A stretch of DNA of 64,000 nucleotides from an uncultured Brachyspira sp. (GCF_910578695.1 NZ_CAJTQJ010000007.1:14597-78596); one strand, 5' to 3'; positions 7,183 to 54,647 are shown, counted from the first letter of the stretch. Notes: generated from the sequence alone by a model not told the origin. Made by a program: numbers and translations.

Positions 7183-8154
7183 ATGTACTTATTGGAATTT
7201 GATGAAATAGCAAAAGAAGTTATTTGGGGCGGAAATTTTCTATCTGCAGTATATTCAAAACCATTCGATAAAAATAAAATTATAGGTGAAAGCTTGGAAA
7301 TTTGCGATTTACCCAATGACAATAATATAGTTTCTAATGGCAAATTAAAAGGACAAACTTTATCATATTTGGTGAATGAATATAGAGAAAAACTTTTAGG
7401 TACAAAATTCAAAGAAAATTATTTTCCATTGCTTGTAAAACTTATAGATTCAAAGGATAAATTATCAATACAAGTTCACCCAGATGAAGAATATGCAAAT
7501 AAAAGACATAATAAACATGGCAAAAATGAAATGTGGTATGTTATGGAAACTTACGGAGAGGCAAAACTTTTAATTGGATTAAAAGAAAATGTTTCAAGCG
7601 AAGATTTAAAAAAAGCTGTTAATAATAATCAGAATATAGAGAATATGTTTAATTATTTTGATGTAAAAAAGGGAGATGCTTTTTATATACCAAGCGGATG
7701 CATACATGCTATACTTGGAAATATTGTTATAGCTGAAATACAAACTCCTAGCGATATTACATACAGACTTTATGATTGGAATAGGACTGATAAAAATGGT
7801 AATTATAGAGAGCTTCATATAGAAGATGCATTTAATGCTGTAAAAGATATTAATTCTTATGGTTTAAAATCAAAAAAAGAAAACAAAATAAAAAATGATA
7901 ATTTAGAAATAAATACAATATTTAAAAATGAATATTTTACTGCAGAAGAGTATATTATAAATAATAATTTTTCTTCAAGCACTATAGAAGAGAGCTTTGA
8001 GATAATCATTATACTAGAAGGGAAAGGAATTATAGAATCTGATTATAATAGAATTGTACTTAATATTGGAAAAACGGTTTTAATACCTGCAGATTTAGGT
8101 GTTTATAATATAGAAAGCGATAATGGAATTAAATTATTGAGGGTAACTTTATAA
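7183..8154 (+). CDS. manA: Class I mannose-6-phosphate isomerase
   Basis: Motifs VIWGG, FPLLVKLIDSKDKLSIQVHPDEEYA, GKNEMWYV, GDAFYIPSGCIHAI and YDWNR match the cupin-type PMI signature. Confidence 0.8.
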   Translation: MYLLEFDEIAKEVIWGGNFLSAVYSKPFDKNKIIGESLEICDLPNDNNIVSNGKLKGQTLSYLVNEYREKLLGTKFKENYFPLLVKLIDSKDKLSIQVHPDEEYANKRHNKHGKNEMWYVMETYGEAKLLIGLKENVSSEDLKKAVNNNQNIENMFNYFDVKKGDAFYIPSGCIHAILGNIVIAEIQTPSDITYRLYDWNRTDKNGNYRELHIEDAFNAVKDINSYGLKSKKENKIKNDNLEINTIFKNEYFTAEEYIINNNFSSSTIEESFEIIIILEGKGIIESDYNRIVLNIGKTVLIPADLGVYNIESDNGIKLLRVTL

Positions 8155-27827: not shown

Positions 27828-29216
27828 ATGAAGTATTTTAATTTTGATAAAAATTTTCTGCATTCTGTTATAGAAGAAGCTTTAAAAAATGGGGGAGAAT
27901 ATGCTGATATATTTTTTGAAGATACTAAAATAAACTCAATAAGTTATTTAGATTCTAAAGCAGATGATATGAATTTAGGAAATAATTATGGCGTAGGCTT
28001 AAGAGTTATAGTTAATAAAAAAACAATATATTTATATTCAAATGATATAAGTAATGAAAACTTAATTAATTTAGCTAGAAGTGCAGCTTCAATTATAAAT
28101 GATAAGAAGCATATAGTTAAGGATTTTATTCAGTCAAATGAAAATAATAATCATCCGCTGCATATAAATCCCTTTGATATTAATTTTGATGAAAAAATAG
28201 ATGTTCTTTCATATTTGGATAAAACAGCAAGGGCAGTATCTGATAAAATAAAACAAGTTAATGCCAGATATATGGAAAAGCAGAGAAATATTTTAGTATG
28301 TGCAAGCAATGGAATATTAAAAGAAGATTCTCAAACTTATATAAGACTTGTTATGATGTCAATGGCAAGCGATGGAGTGAATACTCAGACAGCAAGCAGA
28401 ACAAAAGGCGCATTAGACGGATTTCAAGTAATAAAGGACATTAATTTAGAAGATATGGCTATGGAAACTGCTAATTCTGCTATAAAAATGCTTAATTCAA
28501 AATATCCTAAATCAGGCAAATATCCTGTTGTAATAGATAATGCATTCGGCGGAGTAATATTTCACGAAGCTTGCGGACATGCTTTAGAGGCTACATCTGT
28601 TGCTGATAATGCCAGTGTATTTTGCGGTAAATTGGGAGAAAAAATAGCTTCTGATGTTGTTACGGCTGTTGATGACGGCACTATAAAAAATGCTTGGGGA
28701 AGCTATAATATTGATGATGAAGGTAATGAGGCTCAGAGAACTGTATTAATAGAAAATGGTATTTTAAAAAATTATTTGGTTGATGAGCTTGGTTCTATGA
28801 AGATGAATCAGAAAGTTACAGGAAGTGCGAGGAGAGAAAGCTATAAATATCCTCCTACTTCTAGAATGAGAAATACATTTATAGATAAAGGAAATTCAAG
28901 TTTTGAAGATTTAATTTCCAGCATAGAATACGGACTTTATGCTAAAAAGATGGGCGGCGGTTCGGTTGACCCTGCTACAACAGATTATAATTTTGCAGTT
29001 TCTGAAGGTTATTTAATAGAGAATGGAAAAATTACTGAACCTGTGAGAGGTGCTACGCTTATAGGGCGGGGAGATGAAACTCTTATGAATATTGAAGCGG
29101 TTTCATCTAATTTAGAATTAGCTGACGGTATTTGCGGAAGTATTTCAGGTTCTGTGCCTACTACTGTCGGACAGCCTGCTATTAGAGTTAAAGAACTTAC
29201 TGTGGGAGGCAGATAA
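27828..29216 (+). CDS. tldD: TldD-family metalloprotease
   Basis: The HExxxH motif (FHEACGHALE), the C-terminal GxC and glycine-rich motifs (DGICGSISGSVP, PAIRVKELTVGG), and pairing with a PmbA gene support the call. Confidence 0.88.
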   Translation: MKYFNFDKNFLHSVIEEALKNGGEYADIFFEDTKINSISYLDSKADDMNLGNNYGVGLRVIVNKKTIYLYSNDISNENLINLARSAASIINDKKHIVKDFIQSNENNNHPLHINPFDINFDEKIDVLSYLDKTARAVSDKIKQVNARYMEKQRNILVCASNGILKEDSQTYIRLVMMSMASDGVNTQTASRTKGALDGFQVIKDINLEDMAMETANSAIKMLNSKYPKSGKYPVVIDNAFGGVIFHEACGHALEATSVADNASVFCGKLGEKIASDVVTAVDDGTIKNAWGSYNIDDEGNEAQRTVLIENGILKNYLVDELGSMKMNQKVTGSARRESYKYPPTSRMRNTFIDKGNSSFEDLISSIEYGLYAKKMGGGSVDPATTDYNFAVSEGYLIENGKITEPVRGATLIGRGDETLMNIEAVSSNLELADGICGSISGSVPTTVGQPAIRVKELTVGGR

Positions 29217-29218
29217 TA

Positions 29219-30577
29219 ATGTCAGAATTAAGCAGCTTTATGAATAGAATAAAAGAAGTATATGATATAGTTAAAAACAAAGCAAAAGATATTGATGAAA
29301 TAGAAATTTATATGTCAGTGAGCGGAGAAGAGGAGTTTACTGTAAGAGAAAAAGATTTAGATAGATATACTTATGCTGAATCAGGAGGAATAGGCTTAAG
29401 ATTAATTAAAAATGGAAAAGCGGGCATAAGTTTTACTGAAAAAATAAGTTCTGATATTAATATGGATAGTCTTATTGATAATGCAGAAACTTCATTATAT
29501 TATGCTGATTCTGAGCCTGAATATAATATGCTTATAGATAAAGATGATGAAGAAAAAAGCTATGATATGATTAATAAAGATATAATTAATTTATCAAATG
29601 ATAAACTTAAAGAAATATCATTATCTATAGAAGATAAATTATATTCATTTGACAAAAGAATAGTTAATGTTCCTTCTGCAGGATTAGCAAGATATAATTT
29701 TACTAAATGCATAATAAACAGCAATGGTATATGCAAAGAAGAGAAAAAAAACAGCATATCATACTATGGAGAAGTAATAGCAAAAGACAGTAATGCAGTA
29801 AAAACTTTTTTTGATGTTTATTCTTCAAGAGATGCTTTTTTTGATATTGATGCTTTTACAAGGAATATAGCTGACAATGTTATAAATAAATTATCGGCTA
29901 AGCCTATAGAAAGCGGTAAGTATAAAACAGTATTTACAAGTAAGGCTATGAGAACTATACTAGGTGCTTATTTGGGATTATTCTCTTCTGAGGCAGTTCA
30001 AAAGAAATTATCTCTTCTTCAAGGCAAATTAAATCAAAAAATAGCAGGCAGTATTATCAATATTAAAGATATTCCTATGTATGATAAAGGCTTAGCCAAT
30101 ACTAATTTTGACGGAGAGGGTTCTAAAACTAAAGATTTGAATATAATAAGCAGCGGTATTTTAAATAGCTATCTATATAATAATTATACTGCTAAAAAAG
30201 ACGGCGTAAAAACAACATCGCATGCTTCAAGAGGATTCAAAACTTCAATAGGTATATCATGTCATAATTTGATTTTAGAAGATGGAAATAATACTCAAGA
30301 GGAGCTGATTTCCCAAATTAAAAATGGAGTATTAGTAAATTCTTTAACAGGCACTCATTCAGGAGTTAATGCAATAAGCGGAGATTTTTCTTTACAGGCT
30401 GAAGGCATAAAAATAGAAAACGGCAAATTGTCCTATACAGTAAGTCCTTTTATAGTTTCAGGAAATATATTAGACTTTTTAAATAATATAGAAATGCTTG
30501 CAGATGATACCGATTATCATCATTCATCTATATATACGCCTAGTGCTTTGATTAGGGAATTATCATTTGCTTCATAA
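29219..30577 (+). CDS. pmbA: PmbA/TldE-family protein, partner of TldD
   Basis: The size is right and the gene sits immediately after tldD with a 2-nt gap. The C-terminal pattern (GTHSGVNAISGDFSLQAEGIKIENGK...SPFIVSGNILDFL) is typical of PmbA. Confidence 0.82.
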   Translation: MSELSSFMNRIKEVYDIVKNKAKDIDEIEIYMSVSGEEEFTVREKDLDRYTYAESGGIGLRLIKNGKAGISFTEKISSDINMDSLIDNAETSLYYADSEPEYNMLIDKDDEEKSYDMINKDIINLSNDKLKEISLSIEDKLYSFDKRIVNVPSAGLARYNFTKCIINSNGICKEEKKNSISYYGEVIAKDSNAVKTFFDVYSSRDAFFDIDAFTRNIADNVINKLSAKPIESGKYKTVFTSKAMRTILGAYLGLFSSEAVQKKLSLLQGKLNQKIAGSIINIKDIPMYDKGLANTNFDGEGSKTKDLNIISSGILNSYLYNNYTAKKDGVKTTSHASRGFKTSIGISCHNLILEDGNNTQEELISQIKNGVLVNSLTGTHSGVNAISGDFSLQAEGIKIENGKLSYTVSPFIVSGNILDFLNNIEMLADDTDYHHSSIYTPSALIRELSFAS

Positions 30578-31832
30578 ACTTTATATTATTTTTTTCAGTA
30601 TTGAAGTTTTTTTTATTTTTATTATACTTTATAAAATGAATAGTACTAATCAGTTTTTTTATAAATTTTTGCAGAATTTCGATAAAGTTTCTGACATTGA
30701 AAAGAAGAAAGTATTTAAAAGACTGTCAAATCTTTTTTATTCTCAAAATATCATTATAGAAAATCTTGAAGAGGGTATAATAGCTATAGATGATAAAGGC
30801 TTAATACAGGGAATAAATAAAAAGGCATGTTTTTTGTTTTCTATACCAAGAAACTCAGAAGGAAAATCTATAAGTAAATATATGATTGGAAATGATATAG
30901 TAAAATCTGTATTAGAACTTATAAAAGATAAAATATCAGATACTAAATTATTAAAAGATGATGAAAATGATAGAATAATTCAGATAAATATACTGCCTAT
31001 AGGAGATAAGGGAAGAATCATAGGCACCCTTATAAAGGCATTTGATATAACAAAAACTTATGAAAGTGCTCAAAAACTTAAAAGAGCAGAGCAGCTAGCA
31101 TCTCTTACAACTCTTGCAGCGGGAGTAGCACATGAAATAAAAAATCCTTTAGGATCTATTTCAATATATATACAGCTTATAGAAAAGATAATAAAAAAAA
31201 ATATGGATAATAATTGTCAATGCTATATAGATTTTAAAGAGTATTCTGATATTATAAAAGAGGAAATAAGCAGGCTTGAAGATACTATCAATTCTTTTTT
31301 ATTTTCTGTACGCAAATTAGAGCTTAATATTGAAGATATTAATATAAATGATATTATTTTATCAACAGTTTCATTTTTAAAATATGAGATAGAAAAAAAT
31401 AATGTAAGCATAGATATAAAATTTGATAAGGATAATTTAATTTTAAAATTAGATGAAAGATATATAAAGCAGTCTTTAATTAATATAATACAAAATGCAA
31501 TAGATGCTATGAGTGATAATGATAATCAGAATAAGAAAAAATATATTTATATAAAATTGAAAACTATTGATAATTATGCTGTTATAAGTATAAAAGATAC
31601 AGGAATTGGAATGAAAGAAGAAACATTAAATAAAATATTTGAGCCTTATTTTACTACTAAAAGACATGGTACAGGATTAGGGCTTACAAATGTAGTTCGT
31701 ATAGTAGAAGCACATAACGGCAGTATATCTATAGAAAGCAAATATGGTGTGGGAAGCGAGTTTATAATAAAACTTCCTTTGCATCAGGAGAATCAAAAAT
31801 TTTTACAGACGGATTTATTAGATTATGCCTAA
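30567..31832 (+). CDS. Sensor histidine kinase with an N-terminal TM anchor, a PAS-like domain and HisKA plus HATPase_c domains
   Basis: H-box AHEIKNPLGSI, N-box IIQNAIDAM, G1 DTGIGM and G2 GTGLGL are present. The TTG start overlaps the pmbA stop by 11 nt, and the encoded N-terminal hydrophobic helix supports this early start. Confidence 0.82.
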   Translation: MLHKLYIIFFSIEVFFIFIILYKMNSTNQFFYKFLQNFDKVSDIEKKKVFKRLSNLFYSQNIIIENLEEGIIAIDDKGLIQGINKKACFLFSIPRNSEGKSISKYMIGNDIVKSVLELIKDKISDTKLLKDDENDRIIQINILPIGDKGRIIGTLIKAFDITKTYESAQKLKRAEQLASLTTLAAGVAHEIKNPLGSISIYIQLIEKIIKKNMDNNCQCYIDFKEYSDIIKEEISRLEDTINSFLFSVRKLELNIEDININDIILSTVSFLKYEIEKNNVSIDIKFDKDNLILKLDERYIKQSLINIIQNAIDAMSDNDNQNKKKYIYIKLKTIDNYAVISIKDTGIGMKEETLNKIFEPYFTTKRHGTGLGLTNVVRIVEAHNGSISIESKYGVGSEFIIKLPLHQENQKFLQTDLLDYA

Positions 31833-33162
31833 AATATTAGTAATAGATGATGAAAAAAATATAAGAGACGGCATCAAGAAATCATTAGAATTTGAGGGCT
31901 ATGAAGTTGTAACTGCAGATAATGGCGAAAAGGGAATAGAAACCGTTTATAAAGGCGGGATAGATTTAGTTATAACTGATTTAAAAATGCCTGAAAAGAC
32001 AGGTGAAGAATTTTTAAAAGATATTTTAGAATTTGACAAACATATACCTGTAATAGTACTTACAGGTCATGGTAATGTAGAAACGGCAGTTGATATGATG
32101 AGGCTTGGAGCTTATGATTTTATGACAAAGCCTTTTAATCTTGATAAAATGCTTCTTATAATAGCAAGAGCATTGGAAAGTAAGAATATAAAAAAAACTA
32201 ATGAAACTTTAGAAAAACGGCTTGATTATAATGAAAGTTTTTATGGAATGATAGGGCATAGTCCTAAAATGCTGAAAGTTTATGAGGCAGTAAAACAGGT
32301 GGCTAGAACTAAAGCTACTGTACTTATAGAAGGAGAGAGCGGAACAGGTAAGGAATTAGTTGCTAATGCCATTCATCAAATATCTGACAGAGCAAAACAG
32401 CCTTATATAACTGTAAACTGTGCTGCACTTTCTGAAGGTGTTTTGGAAAGCGAATTATTCGGACATGAAAAAGGTTCTTTCACAGGTGCTATTGATAAAA
32501 AGATAGGAAGGTTTGAAGCCGCCAATAAGGGTACTATATTTTTAGATGAGATAGGGGAAATTAATCAAACTGTTCAGGTTAAGCTTTTGAGGGTGCTTGA
32601 AGAGAGAGTTATAGAGAGAGTGGGTTCAAATAGTTCTATTGATGTTGATATAAGAGTAATTGCTGCTACAAATAAGATATTGTCTGAAGAAATAAAAGAG
32701 GGTAAGTTTAGAGAAGATTTATATTATAGGCTTAATGTTATAAAAATAGAAATGCCGCCGCTTAGAGAGAGAAGAGAAGATATACCGCTTTTAATAGATA
32801 ATTTTATAAAAGAGTTTTCAAATGTTCATTCTATAAATATAAAATCTGTTGATAAAAAAGTGTATAAAATATTATCATCATTGCAATGGGAAGGAAATGT
32901 AAGGGAATTAAGAAATACTATTGAAACTATGGTTGTTATGTGCAAAGATGGTAAAATAGATGAGGGAAATATACCTGATTGGGCATTAAAAAATAATGAT
33001 GAAAATTTTGTAGTGGAAAATGATGTTACATTAGAAGAGCTTGAAAGAATGTATATCAATTATCTGCTTAGTCATAATAATTTTAATAAAGCACAAGTTG
33101 CAAAGATACTTGGAATTGAAAGAGCTACTCTATATAGAAAATTAAAAGAGGATATAAAATAA
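31825..33162 (+). CDS. Sigma-54-dependent response regulator (NtrC family: REC, AAA+ and Fis-type HTH domains)
   Basis: The receiver domain has ILVIDDE...VITDLKMP. The AAA+ domain has GESGTGKE, ELFGHEKGSFTGA (a GAFTGA variant) and FLDEIGE. The C-terminal HTH is AQVAKILGIERATLYRKLK. It overlaps the kinase gene by 8 nt. Confidence 0.9.
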   Translation: MPKILVIDDEKNIRDGIKKSLEFEGYEVVTADNGEKGIETVYKGGIDLVITDLKMPEKTGEEFLKDILEFDKHIPVIVLTGHGNVETAVDMMRLGAYDFMTKPFNLDKMLLIIARALESKNIKKTNETLEKRLDYNESFYGMIGHSPKMLKVYEAVKQVARTKATVLIEGESGTGKELVANAIHQISDRAKQPYITVNCAALSEGVLESELFGHEKGSFTGAIDKKIGRFEAANKGTIFLDEIGEINQTVQVKLLRVLEERVIERVGSNSSIDVDIRVIAATNKILSEEIKEGKFREDLYYRLNVIKIEMPPLRERREDIPLLIDNFIKEFSNVHSINIKSVDKKVYKILSSLQWEGNVRELRNTIETMVVMCKDGKIDEGNIPDWALKNNDENFVVENDVTLEELERMYINYLLSHNNFNKAQVAKILGIERATLYRKLKEDIK

Positions 33163-33175
33163 AAAATAAGAATAT

Positions 33176-33195
33176 AGGAGCTTAAAAAAGCTCCT
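33176..33195. terminator. Bidirectional rho-independent terminator
   Basis: aggagctt aaaa aagctcct forms a perfect 8-bp stem with a 4-nt loop. A/T runs flank both sides, and it lies between the convergent response-regulator and crr genes. Confidence 0.7.
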
Positions 33196-33211
33196 TTAAA
33201 ATTGCAGGCTT

Positions 33212-33676
33212 TTATTTAGAAATAGTCATTATAACATCATTTATAGAAACATCTCTATGTTCAGTTTTATTTAATGATTTCAATTCGGAAAAATTAGGTA
33301 TTATAATAGGCGAAGTAATATCATATTCTTTTTCTATTTCTTCTTTATCAAATTCTATCAGCAAAGCTCCAGCCTTTATTTTATCGCCTTCTTTTACATA
33401 ACATTTAAAATGCTTTCCGCCCAATTTAACAGTATCCATTCCGATATGTATTAATATTTCAACTCCTTTAGATAATAATCCTATAGCATGATTCGTATTA
33501 ACAGTTGTAATAACTTCTCCGTCTACAGGAGAATAAACTTTTCCTTCTTCAGGTATTACAGCCATTCCCTCGCCAAGTGCTTTACTGGAAAAAGCCTCGT
33601 CTTTAACATCTGTAACATCTACTAATTTGCCTTTAATAGGGCTTTTTATTTCAATTTTTTTAGAGAATAATCCCAT
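33212..33676 (-). CDS. crr: PTS glucose-family EIIA component
   Basis: The two-His active-site region (NTNHAIGLLSKGVEILIHIGMDTVKLGG) is present. The protein is 154 aa and has a GAGGAGG RBS upstream on the minus strand. Confidence 0.9.
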   Translation of the reverse strand: MGLFSKKIEIKSPIKGKLVDVTDVKDEAFSSKALGEGMAVIPEEGKVYSPVDGEVITTVNTNHAIGLLSKGVEILIHIGMDTVKLGGKHFKCYVKEGDKIKAGALLIEFDKEEIEKEYDITSPIIIPNFSELKSLNKTEHRDVSINDVIMTISK

Positions 33677-33804
33677 ACGAATTCCTCCTCAAATTTATTT
33701 ATGTTTATATTCTATCATAAATGTTTTTAAAGTAAATAATTCTATAAAAAATATATTGTATTTTAGTATATAAATTATGATGATATTAAAAAATAGCATA
33801 ATGC

Positions 33805-33833
33805 TTGATAAAGCATAAAATAAGTATTATACT
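33805..33833 (+). promoter_or_regulatory. Candidate sigma-70-type promoter for the PTS EIICB gene
   Basis: TTGATA (33805..33810), a 17-nt spacer and TATACT (33828..33833) lie about 40 nt upstream of the ATG. Chance matches are common in an AT-rich background. Confidence 0.4.
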
Positions 33834-33872
33834 ATTAATTATGAAGAAAAAATTAATTTTTATGGAGGATAT

Positions 33873-35333
33873 ATGTTTAATTATCTGCAAAAAATAGGTA
33901 AGTCATTAATGGTTCCTGTAGCTGTACTGCCTGCTGCTGCTATTTTATTGGGTATTGGTTATTGGATTGATCCAAACGGCTGGGGTGCTCAAAGCCCCAT
34001 TTCTGCTTTCTTTATTAAAGCGGGCGGATCTATTATAGATAATATGCCTATACTTTTTGCTATCGGCGTTGCTTTCGGTATGTCTAATGATAGAAATGGT
34101 GCTGCAGCTTTAGCAGGGCTTGTCGCTTTTCTAGTTGTTACAACTCTTTTATCTCCTGCCTCAGTTGCTATGATTCAAAGCAAAGATATTGCTGATGTAG
34201 CTCCGGGTTTTGCTAAGATTAATAATCAGTTTGTAGGCATACTTTGCGGCGTTATTGCGGGAATATTATATAATAAATTTTGTAATGTAGAGCTTCCTAA
34301 ATTTTTAGCATTTTTCAGCGGAAGAAGATTTGTACCTATAGTAACTTCTGTAGTTATGCTGGCTGTGTCTTTTATTTTGATGTTAATATGGCCAGTCGTT
34401 TACGGAGGATTAGTAGCATTTGGCGAAGCTATTATAGGTTTAGGTCCTATAGGAGCTGGAATATACGGATTTTTTAATAGGCTTTTAATTCCTGTAGGAC
34501 TGCATCATGCTCTTAATTCAGTATTCTGGTTTGATGTTGCAGGTATTAATGATATACCTAATTTCTTGGGAGGGCAGGCTTCTATAGATGCAGGAAACGC
34601 TGTTATAGGACAAACAGGTATGTATCAGGCTGGCTTTTTTCCTATTATGATGTTCGGATTAGTAGGTGCTTGTTTTGCATTCATTAAAAATGCTAAGCCT
34701 CAAAACAGAGCTAATATAAGATCTATAATGCTTGCGGCTGCTTTTGCTAGTTTTTTTACAGGCGTAACAGAGCCTATAGAATTCTCATTTATGTTTGTTG
34801 CACCAGCTTTATATTTAGTACATGCTGGTTTAACTTGCATATCATTAATCATTGCTGCCAGCTTCAAATGGATGGCTGGTTTCGGATTTTCTGCAGGATT
34901 TATAGATTTGATTTTATCTACTAGAAATCCGTTAGCTTGCAATTGGTATATGCTTATAGTACAGGGTTTAGTATTCTTTATATTATATTATATTATATTT
35001 GATTTTGCTATTAGAAAATTTAATTTAAAAACTCCCGGAAGAGAAGATGATGATTCTGATGAGAGTATAATTTTAACTGTTTCTAATAAATCTTATGCAG
35101 ATAAAGCTATTCTTTTGCTTCCTTTATTAGGCGGTGCTGAAAATATAGTTAATGTTGATAATTGTGCTACCAGATTAAGACTTGAAGTTAAAGACAATTC
35201 TATAATAAAAGATGCTGAAATTAAGAAATCTTTTCCAGGCGTACTTACTCCCGGAAAAACTTCTGTACAGGTAATAGTAGGCACAGATGTTCAATTTTTA
35301 GCAGATGAGTTTAAAAAATTAGTTAATAAATAA
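33873..35333 (+). CDS. PTS glucose/N-acetylglucosamine-family EIIC-EIIB permease
   Basis: EIIC motifs are LGIGYWI and GFFNRLLIPVGLHHALN. A linker follows, then a C-terminal EIIB domain with the active-site Cys (NVDNCATRLRLEVKD). A GGAGG RBS is present. Confidence 0.9.
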   Translation: MFNYLQKIGKSLMVPVAVLPAAAILLGIGYWIDPNGWGAQSPISAFFIKAGGSIIDNMPILFAIGVAFGMSNDRNGAAALAGLVAFLVVTTLLSPASVAMIQSKDIADVAPGFAKINNQFVGILCGVIAGILYNKFCNVELPKFLAFFSGRRFVPIVTSVVMLAVSFILMLIWPVVYGGLVAFGEAIIGLGPIGAGIYGFFNRLLIPVGLHHALNSVFWFDVAGINDIPNFLGGQASIDAGNAVIGQTGMYQAGFFPIMMFGLVGACFAFIKNAKPQNRANIRSIMLAAAFASFFTGVTEPIEFSFMFVAPALYLVHAGLTCISLIIAASFKWMAGFGFSAGFIDLILSTRNPLACNWYMLIVQGLVFFILYYIIFDFAIRKFNLKTPGREDDDSDESIILTVSNKSYADKAILLLPLLGGAENIVNVDNCATRLRLEVKDNSIIKDAEIKKSFPGVLTPGKTSVQVIVGTDVQFLADEFKKLVNK

Positions 35334-35360
35334 TAGAATTGATTTATTAATATTAAATTA

Positions 35361-35393
35361 GACTTGCAGTACTTATTACTGCAGGTCTTTTTT
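35361..35393 (+). terminator. Rho-independent terminator of the EIICB gene
   Basis: gacttgcagta (35361..35371) pairs with tactgcaggtc (35377..35387). The stem is 11 bp with one G-U pair, the loop is cttat, and tttttt follows. Confidence 0.8.
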
Positions 35394-35459
35394 ATTACTA
35401 GAAATAAAATTAATATTATGTTAGTATTATATGATTATTATAAGTATTTGAGGTTTTTT

Positions 35460-36191
35460 ATGATGAAAGATAATATAAAGTTTATGCTTCCTCTAAACTT
35501 ATTTGGAGATAAAGAAAATATATTAAAAGTAAATAATTGTGCTACCAGATTAAGACTTGAAGTTAAAGATATTAATAAAGTTAATACTGAAGAGATAAAA
35601 AAGTATTATCCTGCTGTACAAAAGATAAATGATAATGAGATTCATATAGTTACAGGTATCAATGCCAATTTGATTGCAAAATCTTTAAAAAGTTTATTGG
35701 AAAATGAAGGCATAGGCTTAAAAACGGCTTTGCTTCTTCCATTAGTTGGTAATATAGATAATATATCTAATATAAATAATTGTGCTACCAGATTAAGACT
35801 TGAAGTTAAAGATATCAATAAAGTTAATACTGAAGAGATAAAAAAATATTATCCTGCTGTACAAAAGATAAATGATAATGAGATTCATATAATTATAGGC
35901 ACTGATGCTAATTTACTTGCTCAGTCTTTAAAAAAATTATTGGAAAATGAAGGTATAAGTTTAAAAACGATTTCTCTTCTTCCTATGATTGGCGGTATAG
36001 AAAATATAACTAATATAAATAATTGTGCTACTAGGCTAAGACTTGAAATAAAAGATATTAATAAAGTTAATACTGAAGAGATAAAAAAATATTATCCTGC
36101 TGTACAAAAGATAAATGATAATGAGATTCATATAATTACAGGTACTAATGCCAATTTGCTTGCTGATGAGCTTAAAAAATTTGTAATTTAA
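35460..36191 (+). CDS. Stand-alone protein composed of three tandem PTS EIIB (glucose-family) domains
   Basis: NNCATRLRLE(V/I)KDINKVNTEEIKKYYPAVQKINDNEIHI occurs three times, 81 aa apart. The Cys codons are at 35538, 35781 and 36024. I prefer the start at ATG 35460, which is preceded by GAGG. The ORF-track TTG start at 35364 lies inside the upstream terminator hairpin. Confidence 0.8.
   Translation: MMKDNIKFMLPLNLFGDKENILKVNNCATRLRLEVKDINKVNTEEIKKYYPAVQKINDNEIHIVTGINANLIAKSLKSLLENEGIGLKTALLLPLVGNIDNISNINNCATRLRLEVKDINKVNTEEIKKYYPAVQKINDNEIHIIIGTDANLLAQSLKKLLENEGISLKTISLLPMIGGIENITNINNCATRLRLEIKDINKVNTEEIKKYYPAVQKINDNEIHIITGTNANLLADELKKFVI
35490..36188 (+). repeat. Three tandem 243-bp coding repeats, one EIIB domain each
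   Basis: The period is exactly 243 nt by the Cys codon positions. A 72-nt core is essentially identical in all three copies (35577..35648, 35820..35891, 36063..36134). The flanks are clearly diverged. Confidence 0.9.
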
Positions 36192-36259
36192 TTTTAATAA
36201 AAAAATAAAGAGGGTATAGCCATATTAAGTTTTTGCTATTTATAATAATAACTTTTATA

Positions 36260-37237
36260 TTATTTCATTATAATCTTATCCAATATTTCAAATATTTCTT
36301 TTTTACTCTCGCATTTCATAAGTTCTATTTTATTTTCCATTTTGTATCCTGTAAGATATTTCATAATAAATTTACGCATAAAATGTATTCCGCTTATTTC
36401 TCCGTATAGTATGCAGCATCCGTTTATATGCTCTTCTATAATATTTTTTAAATTATCATTTTCTGAAATATCATTATTGTATATATCATTATCATCAAAT
36501 ATTGTATTAAGCTCTCTGAATATATAAGGATTGCCTATAGCAGCCCTTCCAATCATTATTCCATCAACTTTAGAAATATTAAATGCCTTTATAGCCTCTT
36601 CTTTATTTTTTATATCTCCGTTTCCTATTAAAATATAATCTTTTCCTAGTGCCTCTTTTGTTTTCGCTATAGCCTCCCAATCAGCATTTCCTTTGTATAA
36701 ATCGCTTGCATATCTTCCATGCAATGTAAGAAAGCATGCCCCGTTTTCTTTTAATGCTAAGGCTCTTTCTATTTCTCCTCCTTCTCCTCTTTTAAGTCCT
36801 AATCTTATTTTTACGCTTACAGGCAGCGGGGATACACTTTTGACTGAATTTAATATGGAAATCATTTTATCAGTATCTTCTAAAAGCCCAGCCCCTCCAT
36901 TGTTTTTTATGACTTTTTTGGTAGGACAGCCCATATTAATATCTATAAAAGAAAAACCGCTTAAATCAGTTATTTCTATAGCTCTTTTATAATCATCTTC
37001 ATTTGCTCCGAACAGCTGAAGCGATATAGGATATTCATCTTTTTTATGCTCCATATATCTATAAGTTTTTTTCACTTGTCTTGCTAATGCAGCTGCACTC
37101 ACAAGCTCGGTTGTAAGAAGCCCTGCACCGAATCTTCTTGAAAGCCTTCTAAAAACATAATCTGTATAGCCTGCCATAGGAGCTAAAAAGAATCTTGAGG
37201 GTATATTTACATTTTCTATTATTATATTTCTATTCAT
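36260..37237 (-). CDS. tRNA-dihydrouridine synthase (DusB-like)
   Basis: Motifs LAPMAGYTD, SLQLFG, IDINMGCP (catalytic Cys), VSVKIRLG, LTLHGR and IGNGDI match the Dus family. Confidence 0.88.
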   Translation of the reverse strand: MNRNIIIENVNIPSRFFLAPMAGYTDYVFRRLSRRFGAGLLTTELVSAAALARQVKKTYRYMEHKKDEYPISLQLFGANEDDYKRAIEITDLSGFSFIDINMGCPTKKVIKNNGGAGLLEDTDKMISILNSVKSVSPLPVSVKIRLGLKRGEGGEIERALALKENGACFLTLHGRYASDLYKGNADWEAIAKTKEALGKDYILIGNGDIKNKEEAIKAFNISKVDGIMIGRAAIGNPYIFRELNTIFDDNDIYNNDISENDNLKNIIEEHINGCCILYGEISGIHFMRKFIMKYLTGYKMENKIELMKCESKKEIFEILDKIIMK

Positions 37238-47675: not shown

Positions 47676-50600
47676 ATGAAATTTAAATGCTATATAAAAT
47701 TAAAAATATTATTATTATTTTCTTTTGTATTATTTGCATGTGCTTCTAGTCAGAAAAATTCTGATACAGCATTTATGAGCAGACCTTTTCTAAAAGAGTA
47801 TAAGAGATATTCTTTAACATCAGGAGAAGTTAATCCTGCATTAGATGCAGTAATTGACAGCGAAGGTACTTGGATATATTATACAAGAGAAAATGCAGGA
47901 AATACAGATATTTTTGCTATAGATTCTTATACTTTGGAATCCTATAGATTAACTAGAAGTCCTAGCATAGACGAATCGGTTTCTGTTGATGAGAAATCAA
48001 AATATATAGTTTTTTCTTCTACTAGAGATGATGCTTTCGGAGATATTTATTTATATAAACTTGTCAATTTCGGTATAAGAACTTCAAAAAATAATTTAGA
48101 AAATTTAGAGCAGAATATAATAAGAATTACAGATTATAAAGGCTATGATATAGATCCTGTTATTTCTCATAAAGGTAATATTATAGCTTTCATTTCAGAT
48201 AGAGATGCAGGAATAAAAAAGCTATTTACAGTTAAGCCTAATGGCAAAGAAGTTAAAAAGATGTCAGATATAGAAGCTTCTTCTCCTACATTTTCTTTTG
48301 ATGATACGAAGATAGCATTTATAACTTCAAAAATAGGAGATACATTTTCTCAGTTAGCAATATTAGATTTGGATTCTAATTCAGAAACTAATTTAAATAT
48401 ACTTACAGATACAAAAACATTCAAATTTAATCCTGCATTTTATAATGATGATACTATCATATATTTTGAAATAGAAAAAGATTCTGATAGAGACGGAAAT
48501 TTAACATACTATGATAAAAGGCGTTTAATGTCATATTCTTTGACTACGCATCAATATTATGTATTAGATGAGGATACTAAATTAACTACTTTTAATGTAG
48601 CATATCCTTCTGCTTTGGTAGGGGCTTATGTGGTAAGCGAAGATGGTACTAGTATAGTAACTATGGGCTCTACTAAAGAATATTTTATAAAAGATGATAA
48701 TTCTCAAAGTATGTACAATAGTTTTATAGAGCTTCCATACGATAGAAAATCCAGTGCTATAGAAAGATTTGCTGAATATTTTCCTTTTAATGAGGATAAA
48801 AATAATGTTGCCAAAGCATATTTTAATATGATGATATCATCGTATTCTAATAATAATATTAAAGAATATAATAATTCTAAAGAAATTTTAATATCAGAGT
48901 ATGAAGATACTTTGGCAGGATTTTTAACTTCTAAAATAGATAATATATTTGATACTAATAATAATTGGTTTGATATAAATTATTATACTAATGAATATTT
49001 TTTTACTAATAATAACTTAGAAATTACTAATTTGACAGCTTGGGCTGGATATATATCAGCAAATGAAAAGTATAAAGCTGATAATAAAAATAAAGATACA
49101 TTAAATATACTTGATAATATTATGAATCTTGATATAAGCAAAGATTTATATATGTTAATTGCAAAATTATATGAACATTCAGTTGAAGATAATGGCTATA
49201 AATATCCCAAAGACAGTAATATTTATAATAAGCCCTATAGAAGAAAAGATTTAATATTTTCAGACAGATTAGAAATAGCTAAAGATTTTATTAGGGATTC
49301 AAATATTCCATATAATGTTATAATAGATAATTCTCATCCTTATGCACCTTTGGCAGTTGCTTCAAGACTTATATATTTAGACGGACTTATACTTTCAAGA
49401 AATTATGATGCTGCTGTTAATTTATTTAAGCCTTATCTTGAATCTAAAAATGAAATAATGCTTGCATTGGGAAATTATGCAAATGCTAAAGTTTTGTTAG
49501 CTCAAAAAGATGACGGAGCTTATGCTTTATTTAAAAATGCTTTAAGTTCAGGCGGTAAGAATTTTGATTCTACTTATGAAGCTGAAAATTGTAAAGAGAT
49601 ATTAGCTGATTATTATAAATCTTTAGCAGATAAAGCATACAATGAAGGTAAGTATACAGCTGCTTATGATAATTATAATGAAACTTTGAAATATAATCCT
49701 ACTGATGCTTCTTCTTCTGCAAGAGTTATAGAAAGCGGGCTTAGGGCATACAGTACAATAGAATCATTAGAAAAAACTATTGCTGAAAGAGAAAAAACAA
49801 TTTTGGAGAATAGATATTCATCTCATGAGGCACATGCCGAATTAGCTAATGCCTATTATTATTTGGCTAACAGATATTATGGAATGGCATTATTAAAACA
49901 GTATAGTAAAGAGCGTTATGTTATAAGCGATAAAAAAAGAGAAGACGGATTTTATTTATATTTAAATAAATCTTTTAATTCTATAGTTAATAATGCTGTA
50001 TCTTATATTGATTTTGCCATATTCTTATATCCTGAAGAGGAAAATTATTATATAAAAAAAGCTGAAATGCTTACATTTGCTCAGGCTTTAAAAATGCAGG
50101 TTCTGCAAGATGAAAAAGTATATAAAAGCGTAATGGAATTAGTACCCGCATATAAAGATAATTCTGCAACTAATAATACATATATAGGTTATAATATGCT
50201 GGCATTTCAAACTGCAAATTTAGATGCTGATATTATAGATGCATTAATAATGGCAAAGAGTAAAGTAAAAACTAAACCAAGTATAGTTTCTATAATGCTT
50301 GCTAATTCTTATTTAATAAACGGAAGATATTCAGATGCTGCAAATGAGTATAAAGAGGCTGAAAGTCTTTTGAATAAAGTAGGTACTGATAAGAGCAGGG
50401 CTTGGTATCATTTTTTCTATGGATATTCTTTATGGATGAATAATGATATAAAAGGTGCTTATAGAGAATATGATATTTCGCGTTCTTTATTTGAAAAATT
50501 AGGAGATAAGGAATCTATATACAAAATAGTAGGCTATACATCTATAGCTGCAATAGAACAGGAAGATTATAAAAAAGCTATAGAATCATTATTAGAAAGA

Positions 50601-53600
50601 GATAAACTCACAGAAAATGATGTTAATAAAAATGAACTTAATCAGCTTTTACTTGCCGCCTGCTATCTTAAATTGGAGGATTATAATAATGCCTTATCCT
50701 ACTGCGATAAAGTAAAAGCTAAAATTGATAGTTTAGATTCATCTGTTTATACGCCGAACTATTTAAGTATAACTTTATATGGTGCAAATATTAATATAGT
50801 AAATTTAGGACTTGCTTCTTTAGGAGGATATATACCCGGAGAGCCTCTTAATGTTGATAAACAGCAAATGCTTTATTCTATATATCAGGAATTATATGAA
50901 AAGATGGGCAGATATTCTGAGGCAAGAGAAGCCCTATATTCGTATAGAAATTATGTTATTAAAGATAAGCCGAAGAAATCTATACAGCCTCTTATGCTTT
51001 CTACATATTATAATAATGAGGGTTATCTTTATTATAAGCAGGGAGATCAGTCTAATTCTATAATGTCTTTTAGAACTTCTATAAAAGAATATGAAAAAAC
51101 TATAGATGAAAAGGCTTTAGCTAATAATCCTAGTCTTAAATTTCAAAATGCTCAAAATGATGCTAAAAATTATTTAAGTTTATCTTCTTTATATTTAAGA
51201 TATTTATCAGAAAATGATTTAACTTCTATGAAGAGAGAATTTTTTATAGAGTTATTCAATACAACAAAAACGCTTCAAATATTATCTACAAATAATGCTG
51301 TGAGTACAAAAGACAGATTATTATTATATTCTCATATAGCGGCTTTTAAATATATAATGGCTTTCAAACTTACTGCAGATAATAATGTTAATTTTAATAA
51401 TAGAAAAAAACAGTATAATGATCCTTCGGATATAACTGATCATGATATAAATGTTGAAAGATTATCTATGCTTAAAGATGCTATTGACAGATATAAGTAT
51501 ATTTTATCATCAAACTCTAACTTTCCAGTAGATTTAAAGACAGAAATTATTATAAGATATAATTTGGCTAAAGCTTATGAATTAGCAGGATATATAGAAG
51601 AAGCAGCACGTGAATATATGTCAGCATTTTCAAAAGCACAGGCATCTGCATTTGCAGTTGAAGAAATAGCAATATTAACTACTTTAATTGATTTCAGTAT
51701 AAAGTATAGAAATATATATCCTGACAGCTTAGATTATCCTATACAATATGTATTTAGAATACTTCAGAGAATGAGAGAAAGCGTATTTATGATAACATTT
51801 GCTGAGGATAATAATTTTATATTAAGACAGGCTAAATATAAAGTTATAGAGTTTTTGAAAGGCAGTTATCCTGATGCCAGCCTTAATATACTTGCTATGT
51901 TTGATGCTATTAATATGAGAAGGAAATTTTTAGACAGAAGGCTTTATACTTTAGGAGAAAATAATTACTATCTTAGAGAATATTATAAACTTTATGAGAA
52001 GGCTATTTATTCTTATCAAAGATATTTGAATGCAGTTTCCACGCCTTATGACAGTAAAACAGAGACTGCTATGTTAAAAGAAATTGCGGCATACGAAAAA
52101 GAGGCTTTAGAAAAATTTTCTAATACTCCTATAGAACCTATAGTTGTATGCGATTTCAAGCCTGAAGATATTGATAAGTCTATGCGTAAAGATGAAACTC
52201 TCATTTGGGATACTTATTTAGGCTATAGATTTGTAAGAGAAAACGGAAAGACTTATTTTTATATTCAAAGCAATGATATGCCTAAAACTAAAAATTATGT
52301 TACTCATATAGGATTCAGACCTATTATTATGAGCAATAAGAATATTTTTGTGAGGGAATTATATGATTCTACAGAATATATGCTTCCTCCTAAAACCGCT
52401 TATATAGACAGTAAATTGATATCATTCTATAAAACTGCTAGAAACTCTCAAAGAGAAATAAATACTATGAGTATGGCAAGCAATACAAACAGCACTAATA
52501 ATATTTATAGTTATAATTATGCTAACGATGTTTCTGCTGAATATGATAATAATAATTTATACAGAAATATTGAATATAATACTAATCAATATTTATCTTC
52601 TAATTCATTATCTTCTAATGCCTTATTAACTAATACCGCTTCAGAAAGTAGAAGAAGGCGTATAGGTAATTTTAGATTTATAGAATTAAAAGATTTAGCT
52701 TCAAATTCTTATGTTCCGTTAGTCACTGATATAACAGGTGCAAATGCTTCTGATATATCTAATGTAATGAAAAAAAATCTTTATATAGTTTATTGCGATA
52801 GAGCTACATTTACAAACAATAGAAGGGTTTTAAGAAATTTGAATAATATAGCTTTAGTAGTAGGAAATGATGAAAAAAATTCCAGAATGATTTTTTATAC
52901 TAATTATTTCAGAAAATTGTCTACAAATTCTTTAGAAGAGAGTATGATGGGCTATGATAATAATATGTTTACCGTATACGGAAAACCTGACTACAGTATT
53001 GCCTCATTATCTAATGCTGCTTATGAATTTAAAATGAGGCTTTATAATTCTTATGCTGCAAGCAAATCGCCTAGTATGACAATGATGTCTAATGTTATAG
53101 CTTATTCTCAAAGCGATAATGAAAAAATGCTTAATTATGCTAAAATAGTTGAAGACAGATATAATGCAAAAGATACAAATTCAGCTTATTATTTTTCTGA
53201 AGAAGGGTATAAATTCTTTTCAAGTTCTTACAGTAATATAAGCGATTCTAATGCATATAGATTTATAAAATCAATGCTTCCTGTTTATAGAAGAATGGGA
53301 GAAGAAGGTGCTGTAAAAGGAGCTAATATAGCATTGCATTTTATGTATTTATATACTAATGATAATTATGATTTGATAGATGAATATTTTACTCCTAGAA
53401 CTTTATCGAGATTTTTGAAAGCAAAAAATGATGCTAAAGAAAATGTAAGGTATTTAAATTATATTGCAAGAAGAGCTGATGGAAATAATAAAGAGAAAAT
53501 TTTAGAAGTTGCTGTTCTTTATGATTTGATATACGGCAGGGTTTCTATTGATAGTATAACAAATTTATTAAATAGAATGCAAAACACAAATGAAGTATTA

Positions 53601-54647
53601 ACAGTTGCAAATACTATAATAGATTCTAAATCAACTAATGAAAATGATATATTTATTACTATGAATTATATATATGGAAATAGATATATATTTGAAAATG
53701 AAACAGTATCTGATTTTGCTGATAGATTTTATTCATTATACAAAACTAATTCTGCTTATATATACGGACTTTTAAATAAGATACGGGTTCCTGAAAGCGA
53801 TTTTGATGATAATATAAAAAATGCTTATGAAATATTTTCAAATGAAAATACTAATACGATGTTTATATTTTATTCTTATGAAAATAATAAATATACTGCA
53901 TACAGTTATGTTGTAGGCGATGCAGAAGTTAAGAAATCCATTTTAATAGACAGAGATAAACTTAATAAATATTTAAATGATTTTACTAATGTATCAAGAG
54001 CAAGGGATAGAAGAAACTCATTAAAATCTATTCAAAGTGCTATGCTCTCATCAGATATTATTAATGATTCTCAAAGAGCTGAAAGAATATATATAACAGG
54101 TTCAGCTGCTAATTTATTTACAGTGCCTTTTGCATATTTAGAGGCATTCAAAAATAATGATGTTGTTAAAATAAGAGAATTCCAATACTCACCTTCATCT
54201 GTTTTGGAAATTGGAAAGCCGTCTATTAAATTAAATATAGAAACCAATTTTTATACTTCATTGGAAAGTTCTGCTGTAAAATCTTTAGAAAACCCTGCAG
54301 GCAAAACTGATTTAATGCATTATATAGGCATAGATACTAATAGAGATAAGCCTTATGATGATATGGATATTTTCTTATCTCCTGCTAGAAATAATGATAT
54401 AAATGCATATTTAAAATCCAGAAATGATACTAAACTTTTATTTACATATACTTCTGATTCTTCCGGCGATTATTATACTGTAATGAAGTATTTGTATCAA
54501 AATTTTGATAAGGGAATAATTGATTCATATAAATATATAAAAAATAATAGAGTTCCTATTAATGCTATAAATCCAAATGATAGAAGTACTTTATATATGG
54601 CTAACTATGCTTTATTTGATTATATATTACCTGGAATTCCTAAATAA
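47676..54647 (+). CDS. Giant (2323 aa) predicted lipoprotein: TolB-like PD40 beta-propeller region, TPR-rich region and a large uncharacterised C-terminal region
   Basis: The signal peptide ends with LFAC|ASSQ. PD40-like repeats are TDIFAIDS...RLT, VDEKSKYIVFSSTRDDAFGDIYLY, DIDPVISHKGNIIAFISDRDAGIKKLFTV and PTFSFDDTKIAFI. Multiple TPR-like units follow, for example KAYNEGKYTAAYDNYNETLKYNP, ANSYLINGRYSDAANEYKEA and AACYLKLEDYNNALSYCDK. Confidence 0.7.
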   Translation: MKFKCYIKLKILLLFSFVLFACASSQKNSDTAFMSRPFLKEYKRYSLTSGEVNPALDAVIDSEGTWIYYTRENAGNTDIFAIDSYTLESYRLTRSPSIDESVSVDEKSKYIVFSSTRDDAFGDIYLYKLVNFGIRTSKNNLENLEQNIIRITDYKGYDIDPVISHKGNIIAFISDRDAGIKKLFTVKPNGKEVKKMSDIEASSPTFSFDDTKIAFITSKIGDTFSQLAILDLDSNSETNLNILTDTKTFKFNPAFYNDDTIIYFEIEKDSDRDGNLTYYDKRRLMSYSLTTHQYYVLDEDTKLTTFNVAYPSALVGAYVVSEDGTSIVTMGSTKEYFIKDDNSQSMYNSFIELPYDRKSSAIERFAEYFPFNEDKNNVAKAYFNMMISSYSNNNIKEYNNSKEILISEYEDTLAGFLTSKIDNIFDTNNNWFDINYYTNEYFFTNNNLEITNLTAWAGYISANEKYKADNKNKDTLNILDNIMNLDISKDLYMLIAKLYEHSVEDNGYKYPKDSNIYNKPYRRKDLIFSDRLEIAKDFIRDSNIPYNVIIDNSHPYAPLAVASRLIYLDGLILSRNYDAAVNLFKPYLESKNEIMLALGNYANAKVLLAQKDDGAYALFKNALSSGGKNFDSTYEAENCKEILADYYKSLADKAYNEGKYTAAYDNYNETLKYNPTDASSSARVIESGLRAYSTIESLEKTIAEREKTILENRYSSHEAHAELANAYYYLANRYYGMALLKQYSKERYVISDKKREDGFYLYLNKSFNSIVNNAVSYIDFAIFLYPEEENYYIKKAEMLTFAQALKMQVLQDEKVYKSVMELVPAYKDNSATNNTYIGYNMLAFQTANLDADIIDALIMAKSKVKTKPSIVSIMLANSYLINGRYSDAANEYKEAESLLNKVGTDKSRAWYHFFYGYSLWMNNDIKGAYREYDISRSLFEKLGDKESIYKIVGYTSIAAIEQEDYKKAIESLLERDKLTENDVNKNELNQLLLAACYLKLEDYNNALSYCDKVKAKIDSLDSSVYTPNYLSITLYGANINIVNLGLASLGGYIPGEPLNVDKQQMLYSIYQELYEKMGRYSEAREALYSYRNYVIKDKPKKSIQPLMLSTYYNNEGYLYYKQGDQSNSIMSFRTSIKEYEKTIDEKALANNPSLKFQNAQNDAKNYLSLSSLYLRYLSENDLTSMKREFFIELFNTTKTLQILSTNNAVSTKDRLLLYSHIAAFKYIMAFKLTADNNVNFNNRKKQYNDPSDITDHDINVERLSMLKDAIDRYKYILSSNSNFPVDLKTEIIIRYNLAKAYELAGYIEEAAREYMSAFSKAQASAFAVEEIAILTTLIDFSIKYRNIYPDSLDYPIQYVFRILQRMRESVFMITFAEDNNFILRQAKYKVIEFLKGSYPDASLNILAMFDAINMRRKFLDRRLYTLGENNYYLREYYKLYEKAIYSYQRYLNAVSTPYDSKTETAMLKEIAAYEKEALEKFSNTPIEPIVVCDFKPEDIDKSMRKDETLIWDTYLGYRFVRENGKTYFYIQSNDMPKTKNYVTHIGFRPIIMSNKNIFVRELYDSTEYMLPPKTAYIDSKLISFYKTARNSQREINTMSMASNTNSTNNIYSYNYANDVSAEYDNNNLYRNIEYNTNQYLSSNSLSSNALLTNTASESRRRRIGNFRFIELKDLASNSYVPLVTDITGANASDISNVMKKNLYIVYCDRATFTNNRRVLRNLNNIALVVGNDEKNSRMIFYTNYFRKLSTNSLEESMMGYDNNMFTVYGKPDYSIASLSNAAYEFKMRLYNSYAASKSPSMTMMSNVIAYSQSDNEKMLNYAKIVEDRYNAKDTNSAYYFSEEGYKFFSSSYSNISDSNAYRFIKSMLPVYRRMGEEGAVKGANIALHFMYLYTNDNYDLIDEYFTPRTLSRFLKAKNDAKENVRYLNYIARRADGNNKEKILEVAVLYDLIYGRVSIDSITNLLNRMQNTNEVLTVANTIIDSKSTNENDIFITMNYIYGNRYIFENETVSDFADRFYSLYKTNSAYIYGLLNKIRVPESDFDDNIKNAYEIFSNENTNTMFIFYSYENNKYTAYSYVVGDAEVKKSILIDRDKLNKYLNDFTNVSRARDRRNSLKSIQSAMLSSDIINDSQRAERIYITGSAANLFTVPFAYLEAFKNNDVVKIREFQYSPSSVLEIGKPSIKLNIETNFYTSLESSAVKSLENPAGKTDLMHYIGIDTNRDKPYDDMDIFLSPARNNDINAYLKSRNDTKLLFTYTSDSSGDYYTVMKYLYQNFDKGIIDSYKYIKNNRVPINAINPNDRSTLYMANYALFDYILPGIPK

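Follow-up and report, generated by a model that had tools for sequence, protein, structure and literature searches.

A 64,000-nucleotide (nt) stretch of DNA from an uncultured Brachyspira sp. (GCF_910578695.1, NZ_CAJTQJ010000007.1:14597-78596; hereafter the window) carries, at positions 35460..36191, a gene which encodes three consecutive EIIB(Glc) domains of the phosphotransferase system (PTS) and no EIIC domain. The gene and its product are referred to here as poly-EIIB. Profile, cysteine loop and fold all place its domains in the EIIB(Glc) family. The reading we favour, with about even confidence, is that poly-EIIB is a soluble multi-site pool of phosphocysteine (P~Cys) which would be charged by phosphorylated EIIA(Glc) (P~EIIA(Glc)), would stand in reversible equilibrium with the upstream PTS and would donate in trans to EIIC of the Glc/NagE family. 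The gene and its parts are as follows, with lengths in amino acids (aa).

35460..36191, + strand: poly-EIIB gene, 243 aa, three EIIB(Glc) domains without EIIC
35450..35453, + strand: Shine-Dalgarno sequence GAGG, read from the sequence and conserved in the alignment
35481..35723, + strand: EIIB domain 1, aa 8-88, Cys27 codon at 35538..35540
35724..35966, + strand: EIIB domain 2, aa 89-169, Cys108 codon at 35781..35783
35967..36188, + strand: EIIB domain 3, aa 170-243, Cys189 codon at 36024..36026

The start was assigned to the ATG at 35460, a position shared by the homologues; a 275-aa open reading frame (ORF) beginning with TTG at 35364 was rejected as the gene, its start falling within a terminator. 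Profile PF00367 (PTS_EIIB) matched poly-EIIB over three stretches with 131.9 bits (cut-off 27) and was the sole Pfam domain, the EIIC profile PF02378 giving no match to the protein in the Pfam profile search. TIGR00826 (EIIB_glc) also matched over three stretches (94.1 bits, cut-off 45.75), and the NagE equivalog TIGR01998 reached 142 bits, below its cut-off of 553.2, with the B region alone matching. The stand-alone triple EIIB without EIIC described in the original prediction was thus recovered by profile, and so was its claim of an NNCATRLRLE motif in every domain; this sequence surrounds Cys27, Cys108 and Cys189, which are spaced by exactly 81 aa. Tandem Repeats Finder reported a period of 243 nt in the gene, with 2.7 copies, 88% matches and 0 indels. 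Because EIIC is lacking, poly-EIIB is not a permease.

An AlphaFold2 model based on a 28-sequence alignment consisted of three separate alpha/beta domains, with a predicted local distance difference test (pLDDT) score of 80-92 in the domains and of about 55 in the two linkers. The predicted template modelling (TM) score for the whole was 0.43, and there is therefore no confident inter-domain packing. When single domains were compared with the Protein Data Bank (PDB) using Foldseek, they matched the E. coli IIBGlc entries 1o2f_B, 3bp3_A and 3bp8_C with target-normalised TM scores of 0.84-0.88 and root-mean-square deviations of 1.2-1.3 A, and a sequence search returned the same entries at about 30% identity. 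The domains thus share with EIIB(Glc) of E. coli PtsG (PDB 1IBA, 3BP3, 1O2F) the fold and the C-x-T-R-x-R phospho-cysteine loop. PtsG differs in having a single such domain, joined to EIIC via a KTPGRED linker, whereas poly-EIIB has three copies, is soluble and lacks EIIC. A second difference lies 35 residues after the cysteine (Cys+35), the position of Q456 in PtsG, which is occupied by His in 331 of 335 Brachyspira poly-EIIB domains (H62, H143 and H224 in the window protein). Gln was found there in all 120 retrieved NagE-type EIICB proteins.

Databases hold a protein identical to the 243-aa product on 18 contigs and a form of 242 aa on a further 5, named "PTS transporter subunit EIIB [uncultured Brachyspira sp.]". 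Homologues were obtained from B. hyodysenteriae, B. intermedia, B. hampsonii, B. murdochii, B. innocens, B. pulli, B. alvinipulli, B. suanatina, B. catarrhinii and Brachyspira sp. G79; no protein of B. pilosicoli or B. aalborgi was present among the named homologue matches, and a profile search of contigs with the repeat alignment missed some species. Most homologues are 326-339 aa long (four domains), others 243-254 aa (three) or about 161-176 aa (two). The survey of copy number in relatives which the original prediction had proposed accordingly gave two, three or four domains per Brachyspira protein, with four domains in 65, three in 15 and two in 15 of 95 protein clusters. The beta-4 motif and KYY, two anchors which do not involve the active site, were used to locate the domains in these clusters, and C-x-T-R-x-R was missing in none of the 335. 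The ratio of nonsynonymous to synonymous substitution rates (dN/dS) between species was 0.19-0.39 for poly-EIIB versus 0.03-0.19 for the adjacent EIICB. By these comparisons poly-EIIB evolves faster than EIICB, yet clearly under constraint.

The orthologue in B. hyodysenteriae WA1, BHWA1_00273/C0QXB5, was detected by proteomics with up to 12 peptides and 53% coverage (Casas 2016 supplement, PMC4955376, files 5 and 7). Total spectral matches in WA1 were 176 for BHWA1_00273, 298 for NagE and 133 for EIIA (Casas 2016 supplement, PMC4955376). As with the gene in the window, BHWA1_00273 sits between nagE and rsbU. The protein P0066 (accession ACN82773.1), which has the same name, would from its numbering fit WA1 locus number 273. 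No inventory of PTS components is given in the WA1 genome paper or in its supplement.

In a neighbour-joining tree of single domains, these grouped by position (d1, d2, d3, d4) across species, and all poly-EIIB domains fell on one side of the outgroup, the B domain of the window permease. The multi-domain layout is therefore older than speciation. These data bear directly on whether poly-EIIB is a non-functional by-product, that is, a decaying tandem duplication of the nagE 3' end or a repeat assembly artefact, both of which had been raised with the original prediction. The repeats are indeed 78-83% identical in DNA with a near-identical core, a two-domain variant (P0065) is present on one contig, and the gene is split in two in one B. 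hyodysenteriae strain. Against this stand the position-wise orthology across species with dN/dS below 0.4, the absence of any active-site loss in 335 domains and the detection of the B. hyodysenteriae protein by mass spectrometry, so that the gene is neither silent nor decaying. With regard to an artefact, the repeats have unique flanks, the protein recurs on the 18 and 5 contigs given above, and four-domain versions are present on the B. hyodysenteriae records CP015910.2 and CP046930.1, each of about 3.0 Mb. We regard a by-product as highly improbable.

The repeats themselves point to an array which is subject to recombination. A core of about 120 nt, running from the active-site loop through beta-4, is almost identical among the three repeats (alignment columns 46-168), while the repeat flanks have diverged.

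35526..35648, + strand: near-identical repeat core, copy 1
35769..35891, + strand: near-identical repeat core, copy 2
36012..36134, + strand: near-identical repeat core, copy 3

Among the three repeats the overall synonymous divergence (dS) is about 0.4 and dN/dS is 0.37-0.51. A near-identical core between diverged flanks is explained by gene conversion, and the pattern indicates that the core would be a tract of such conversion as well as a site at which unequal recombination can act. Protein P0065 (162 aa) corresponds to the window protein with one unit removed, the junction falling within the core, and results either from deletion by recombination or from collapse during assembly of its contig. 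Domain 1 has an N-terminal flank orthologous to that of d1 in four-domain proteins, the flanks of domain 2 most resemble those of d4, the last domain of such proteins, and domain 3, ending in KKFVI, is orthologous to d4. A derivation of the three-domain array by loss of one unit from a four-domain array was rejected, as the flanks show two d4-like units behind a d1-type head.

Variation extends to the locus as a whole, where the number of free domains in Brachyspira ranges from 2 to 7. EIICB is followed by four domains in most species, by three in the window and in L014, and by genes of two and four domains in some B. hyodysenteriae strains (L005-L007). In B. pulli (L016) genes of three and four domains follow EIICB and precede a gene for a MalK-like ATP-binding cassette (ABC) ATPase, and in B. 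alvinipulli (L020/L021 and L022) a four-domain gene lies between FtsK and the MalK-like ATPase without EIICB. This ATPase (ABC_tran, OB_MalK and TOBE domains) is encoded directly 3' of poly-EIIB at 7881..8990 of L016 and 7025..8134 of L020. When two B. hyodysenteriae strains were compared (L003 10001..10987 versus L006 10690..11694), dS was 0.02 for EIICB and 0.60 for poly-EIIB, the alleles of which were 73% identical; one of them was closest to the B. pulli allele (83%). Near-identical EIICB with divergent poly-EIIB in one species indicates replacement of the allele by recombination, at what looks like a hot spot. NagE-type EIICB occurs in other contexts with no poly-EIIB alongside in the Brachyspira-like lineages P0353 and P0308, and this, together with the lack of a B. 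pilosicoli or B. aalborgi match, marks the gene as accessory and lineage-restricted. Two irregular B. hyodysenteriae loci were also recorded. In CP015910.2 (L002 8140..10000) no EIICB was called and a 325-aa ORF replaces the 486-aa nagE of other strains, possibly a frameshift, a pseudogene or a sequence error, with poly-EIIB intact. In JXNI01000016 (L005 10690..11693) a frameshift or sequencing error divides the four-domain gene between products of 217 aa and 113 aa.

The genes and signals which adjoin poly-EIIB in the window are listed below.

33212..33676, - strand: crr-like EIIA(Glc), 154 aa, divergent, presumed phosphoryl donor (PF00358, 155 bits; TIGR00830, 138 bits, cut-off 97.5)
33873..35333, + strand: NagE-type EIICB, 486 aa, EIIC with its own EIIB (PF02378 and PF00367; TIGR01998, 632.7 bits, cut-off 553.2)
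33805..33833, + strand: putative nagE promoter TTGATA-17-TATACT, the best promoter-like match of the region
35360..35394, + strand: intrinsic terminator of nagE, a hairpin (35360..35388) with a 12-bp stem, then a T-run
35399..35429, + strand: 31-nt promoter-like motif TAGAAATAAAATTAATATTATGTTAGTATTA, near-invariant in 8 aligned intergenic regions, putative promoter

The fourth EIIB on the permease and the single divergent EIIA, both part of the original prediction, were confirmed by these profile matches. The order EIIA - EIICB - poly-EIIB is conserved, poly-EIIB being syntenic in most Brachyspira species, and the B. hyodysenteriae locus is syntenic with the window, running from a TldD/PmbA pair through a histidine kinase, a sigma-54 response regulator, EIIA (- strand), EIICB, poly-EIIB and Dus (- strand) to a GAF-SpoIIE phosphatase; the position of EIIA(Glc) is the same in all B. 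hyodysenteriae loci. The TldD/PmbA pair, histidine kinase and sigma-54-type regulator occupy 27828..33162 of the window, immediately 5' of the PTS genes as in B. hyodysenteriae. Control of the PTS genes by this two-component system was considered and dropped, no -24/-12 element being present in 33000..36400 except for a weak intragenic match. Elsewhere in the window, the + strand holds an ORF of 2323 aa at 47676..54647.

The terminator claimed between EIICB and poly-EIIB was found as a hairpin with T-run and is kept in 8 Brachyspira lineages, where 5 of the 12 stem pairs hold through two-sided compensatory changes. Downstream of it, TAGAAATAAAATTAATATTATGTTAGTATTA may be read as a -35 element TAGAAA, a 17-nt spacer and an extended -10 element TGnTAGTAT, although it has 8 of 12 matches in a simple promoter scan that requires 9. 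The motif occurs once in the window, with 0 chance matches expected, and is itself almost invariant while the spacer around it varies between lineages. It lay 5' of all the poly-EIIB genes inspected, among them the additional copies in B. hyodysenteriae (L005/L006) and in B. pulli (L016) as well as the gene that stands at another place in B. alvinipulli. The nagE promoter-like site, at which the block CTTGATAA...AAATAAGTATTATACTA is conserved in 6 lineages, is different from TAGAAATAAAATTAATATTATGTTAGTATTA. With a conserved nagE terminator and a promoter-like motif of its own which travels with the gene, poly-EIIB is therefore a separate transcription unit. The palindrome AGCATAATGCT (33795..33805) at the putative nagE promoter was dropped as a candidate operator, being without conservation in other species.

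An exhaustive HMMER search over 1.84 billion cluster representatives returned many short proteins matching across at least 2 domains. Among the retrieved non-Brachyspira proteins, 41 stand-alone sequences had at least 2 intact Cys motifs, and di- to penta-EIIB proteins were found in several lineages. These include a 166-aa, 2-domain protein of Streptobacillus felis (WP_067320432; L008 8001..9463), a 335-aa, 4-domain and partly degenerate protein of Fusobacterium sp. (WP_410207567) encoded two genes 3' of EIICB (L010), a 163-aa, 2-domain protein from a Brevinema metagenome-assembled genome (MGL5722125) and metagenomic arrays of 5 (P0121), 4 (P0122) and 3 (P0130) domains. In L042 a di-EIIB gene follows EIICB. 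With members in Fusobacterium, Streptobacillus, Brevinema and metagenomic lineages, the architecture is recurrent. These arrays resemble poly-EIIB in consisting of EIIB alone in tandem, and several adjoin EIICB. They are only 27-41% identical to the window protein, which makes independent origins likely. They differ also in that some Fusobacterium-type domains have degenerate active sites, whereas the Brachyspira domains are all intact; His at Cys+35 is found in a minority of them. A stretch of GCA_002632265.1 (L043 4109..6486) holds three two-domain EIIB genes (175, 175 and 172 aa) on both strands and no EIIC gene.

An extra EIIB(Glc) domain also accompanies EIICB in fused EIIC-B-B permeases, of which P0125 (652 aa) and a frameshifted one in L044 were seen; there the additional domain is covalently attached, whereas poly-EIIB is a separate soluble protein, separately transcribed. 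The apparent di-EIIB of L044, in a chitin-utilisation locus, was not counted as stand-alone, being the tail of the frameshifted EIIC-B-B gene. The closest relatives of the poly-EIIB domains outside their own family were B domains of EIICB fragments (49-55% identity per domain), one of which, P0097, visibly shares C-terminal sequence with the window permease. Full-length identity between that permease and Fusobacterium ulcerans/varium NagE is 75%, unusually high between phyla, which suggests that the permease may have been transferred between phyla. Co-transfer of EIICB and poly-EIIB from Fusobacterium was rejected, as the F. ulcerans/varium nagE locus has no adjacent poly-EIIB.

On the reading we favour, poly-EIIB would be a cytoplasmic beads-on-a-string protein of three functional EIIB(Glc) phosphocarrier domains, derived from the EIIB part of a permease of the NagE type. 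Each domain cysteine would be phosphorylated by P~EIIA(Glc), the gene for which lies 1.8 kb upstream, and the phosphoryl groups would be passed in trans to EIIC of Glc/NagE-family permeases or back to EIIA. PTS transfers down to EIIB are reversible, and a soluble P~Cys pool would therefore be in equilibrium with EIIA, HPr and EI and could serve as accessory EIIB capacity or as a buffer. Transcription would proceed from the conserved promoter of the gene itself, apart from nagE, and head number would be altered by unequal recombination and gene conversion via the core. That the domains are working phosphocarriers is argued by the IIBGlc fold, the invariant Cys, Thr and both Arg, and purifying selection concentrated on the active-site face. 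It is argued also by the NagE-like abundance of the protein, the EIIA and NagE-type permease alongside, the pairing with EIICB elsewhere (L010, L042) and the EIIC-B-B relatives. Lanz and Erni reportedly found in 1998 that both loop arginines of E. coli PtsG are needed for transfer to the sugar. Duplicated EIIB domains have a precedent in E. coli FruA (IIB'-IIB-IIC), in which, as Charbit et al. are said to have reported in 1996, the duplicated IIB' aids phosphotransfer and is non-catalytic, without a phosphorylation function. FruA IIB' belongs to another EIIB superfamily and is membrane-tethered, and the poly-EIIB domains differ from it in that all keep the active site.

Several observations weigh against this reading. 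The adjacent permease already has its own EIIB. NagE-type EIICB without an adjacent poly-EIIB, in Brachyspira-like lineages and in F. ulcerans/varium, makes poly-EIIB look dispensable for transport, and the B. alvinipulli poly-EIIB adjoins no EIICB and lies instead beside the MalK-like ABC ATPase. A phosphate store at the level of protein is small relative to sugar flux, and a pure buffer would therefore be relevant mainly to signalling. Finally, the lineage-wide change from Gln to His hints at some functional change.

Alternatively, in the manner of E. coli GlvB/GlvC, poly-EIIB might be the EIIB reserved for EIIC-only permeases of the Glc family, one or several, whose genes lie at other places in the genome. 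GlvB has one EIIB domain and is paired with an EIIC that lacks EIIB. Separate EIIB polypeptides thus exist in the family, and the invariant arginines of poly-EIIB would suit such a role. The profile for this type, NF007255 (PRK09702, stand-alone IIB), matched poly-EIIB only weakly, however, with 87.6 bits against a cut-off of 321, and no EIIC-only gene was seen in the 64-kb window or in any of the Brachyspira loci examined. While both carry EIIB(Glc) on its own polypeptide, poly-EIIB differs from the GlvB type in being tripled and in having a neighbouring permease which carries its own EIIB. As the score is under the cut-off and no EIIC-only gene adjoins, poly-EIIB is not a GlvB-type subunit. 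The Glc-family permeases in B. hyodysenteriae proteome tables are EIICBA, EIICB and IIABC, each with its own B domain, and a single partner would not account for three to seven heads. Of the roles offered in the original prediction, service to an EIIC-only permease is slightly weakened by these data and appears improbable; the evidence does not separate a buffer or sink from a regulator.

The regulator in question would be an adaptor, a multivalent sensor of the PTS phosphorylation state which in its dephospho (or phospho) form binds and controls another protein, the candidates being a ROK-family protein or a MalK-type ABC ATPase. In E. coli, dephospho-EIIB(Glc) sequesters the tetrameric ROK repressor Mlc. 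EIIB(Glc) is thus known as a phosphorylation-dependent binding module, and the fold of poly-EIIB as modelled matches EIIB in its complex with Mlc (3BP8, chain 3bp8_C). An adaptor would be consistent with the near-invariant promoter-like motif of poly-EIIB and the terminator which separates it from nagE, with NagE dispensing with poly-EIIB in other lineages, and with the Gln-to-His change, which lies in the strand after the active-site loop and is lineage-wide. The MalK-like ATPase with OB/TOBE domains adjoins the gene in B. pulli and B. alvinipulli. The di-EIIB gene of Streptobacillus felis lies between a fructose-bisphosphate aldolase gene and a 317-aa ROK-family (glucokinase-like) gene, directly 5' of the latter and with no EIIC nearby. 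The usual four heads might in addition suit a tetrameric partner. These MalK and ROK adjacencies are, however, each confined to one or two lineages, and in the B. hyodysenteriae loci the nearest 10 kb or so held no ROK gene or other obvious target; an Mlc/ROK partner, as in the E. coli complex, was not identified near the Brachyspira locus. Searching the 64-kb window by tblastn with its three PTS proteins gave no further PTS gene, and 2 to 7 domains per locus are a poor fit to a complex of fixed stoichiometry. A further difference from the E. coli complex is that EIIB there must be membrane-anchored. We consider an adaptor somewhat unlikely, but the foremost rival of the phosphocarrier pool.

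More broadly, and with little confidence, it may be proposed that tandem EIIB-only proteins form an unrecognised class of soluble PTS component with several separate origins among anaerobes of the gut and mouth (Brachyspira, Fusobacteriota, Brevinema). Such a protein would act as a multivalent phosphoryl capacitor or signalling hub setting the P~EIIA(Glc)/EIIA ratio and would not serve transport itself. If this tentative proposal, rather unlikely as we judge it, were true, these proteins would through that ratio set catabolite control, the exclusion of inducers at ATPases of the MalK type or a chemotaxis to mucin sugars that is linked to the PTS, with a gain tuned by rapid recombinational change in head number and by exchange of alleles between species.

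Few bacterial systems for transport and signalling have been studied as thoroughly as the PTS, whose textbook parts list, to our knowledge, includes no soluble multi-EIIB protein. No paper on stand-alone multi-EIIB proteins or on BHWA1_00273/C0QXB5 was found in the searchable literature, so that the claim in the original prediction that poly-EIIB is not a described PTS component stands to that extent; the architecture is not unique, and it is annotated in dozens of Brachyspira genomes under the generic label "PTS transporter subunit EIIB". The genus Brachyspira includes the agent of swine dysentery, and N-acetylglucosamine is a mucin-derived sugar relevant to colonisation. A conserved, abundant and evolutionarily dynamic protein thus adjoins the N-acetylglucosamine transporter in the genus of this pathogen. 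Were poly-EIIB merely redundant EIIB capacity, it would be no more than an oddity produced by domain shuffling. Should it buffer phosphoryl flow or redirect it, PTS carbon sensing would gain a tunable element, with head number as an evolvable gain control. By these data, a very well-studied system gains in poly-EIIB a component which is real and more dynamic than expected.

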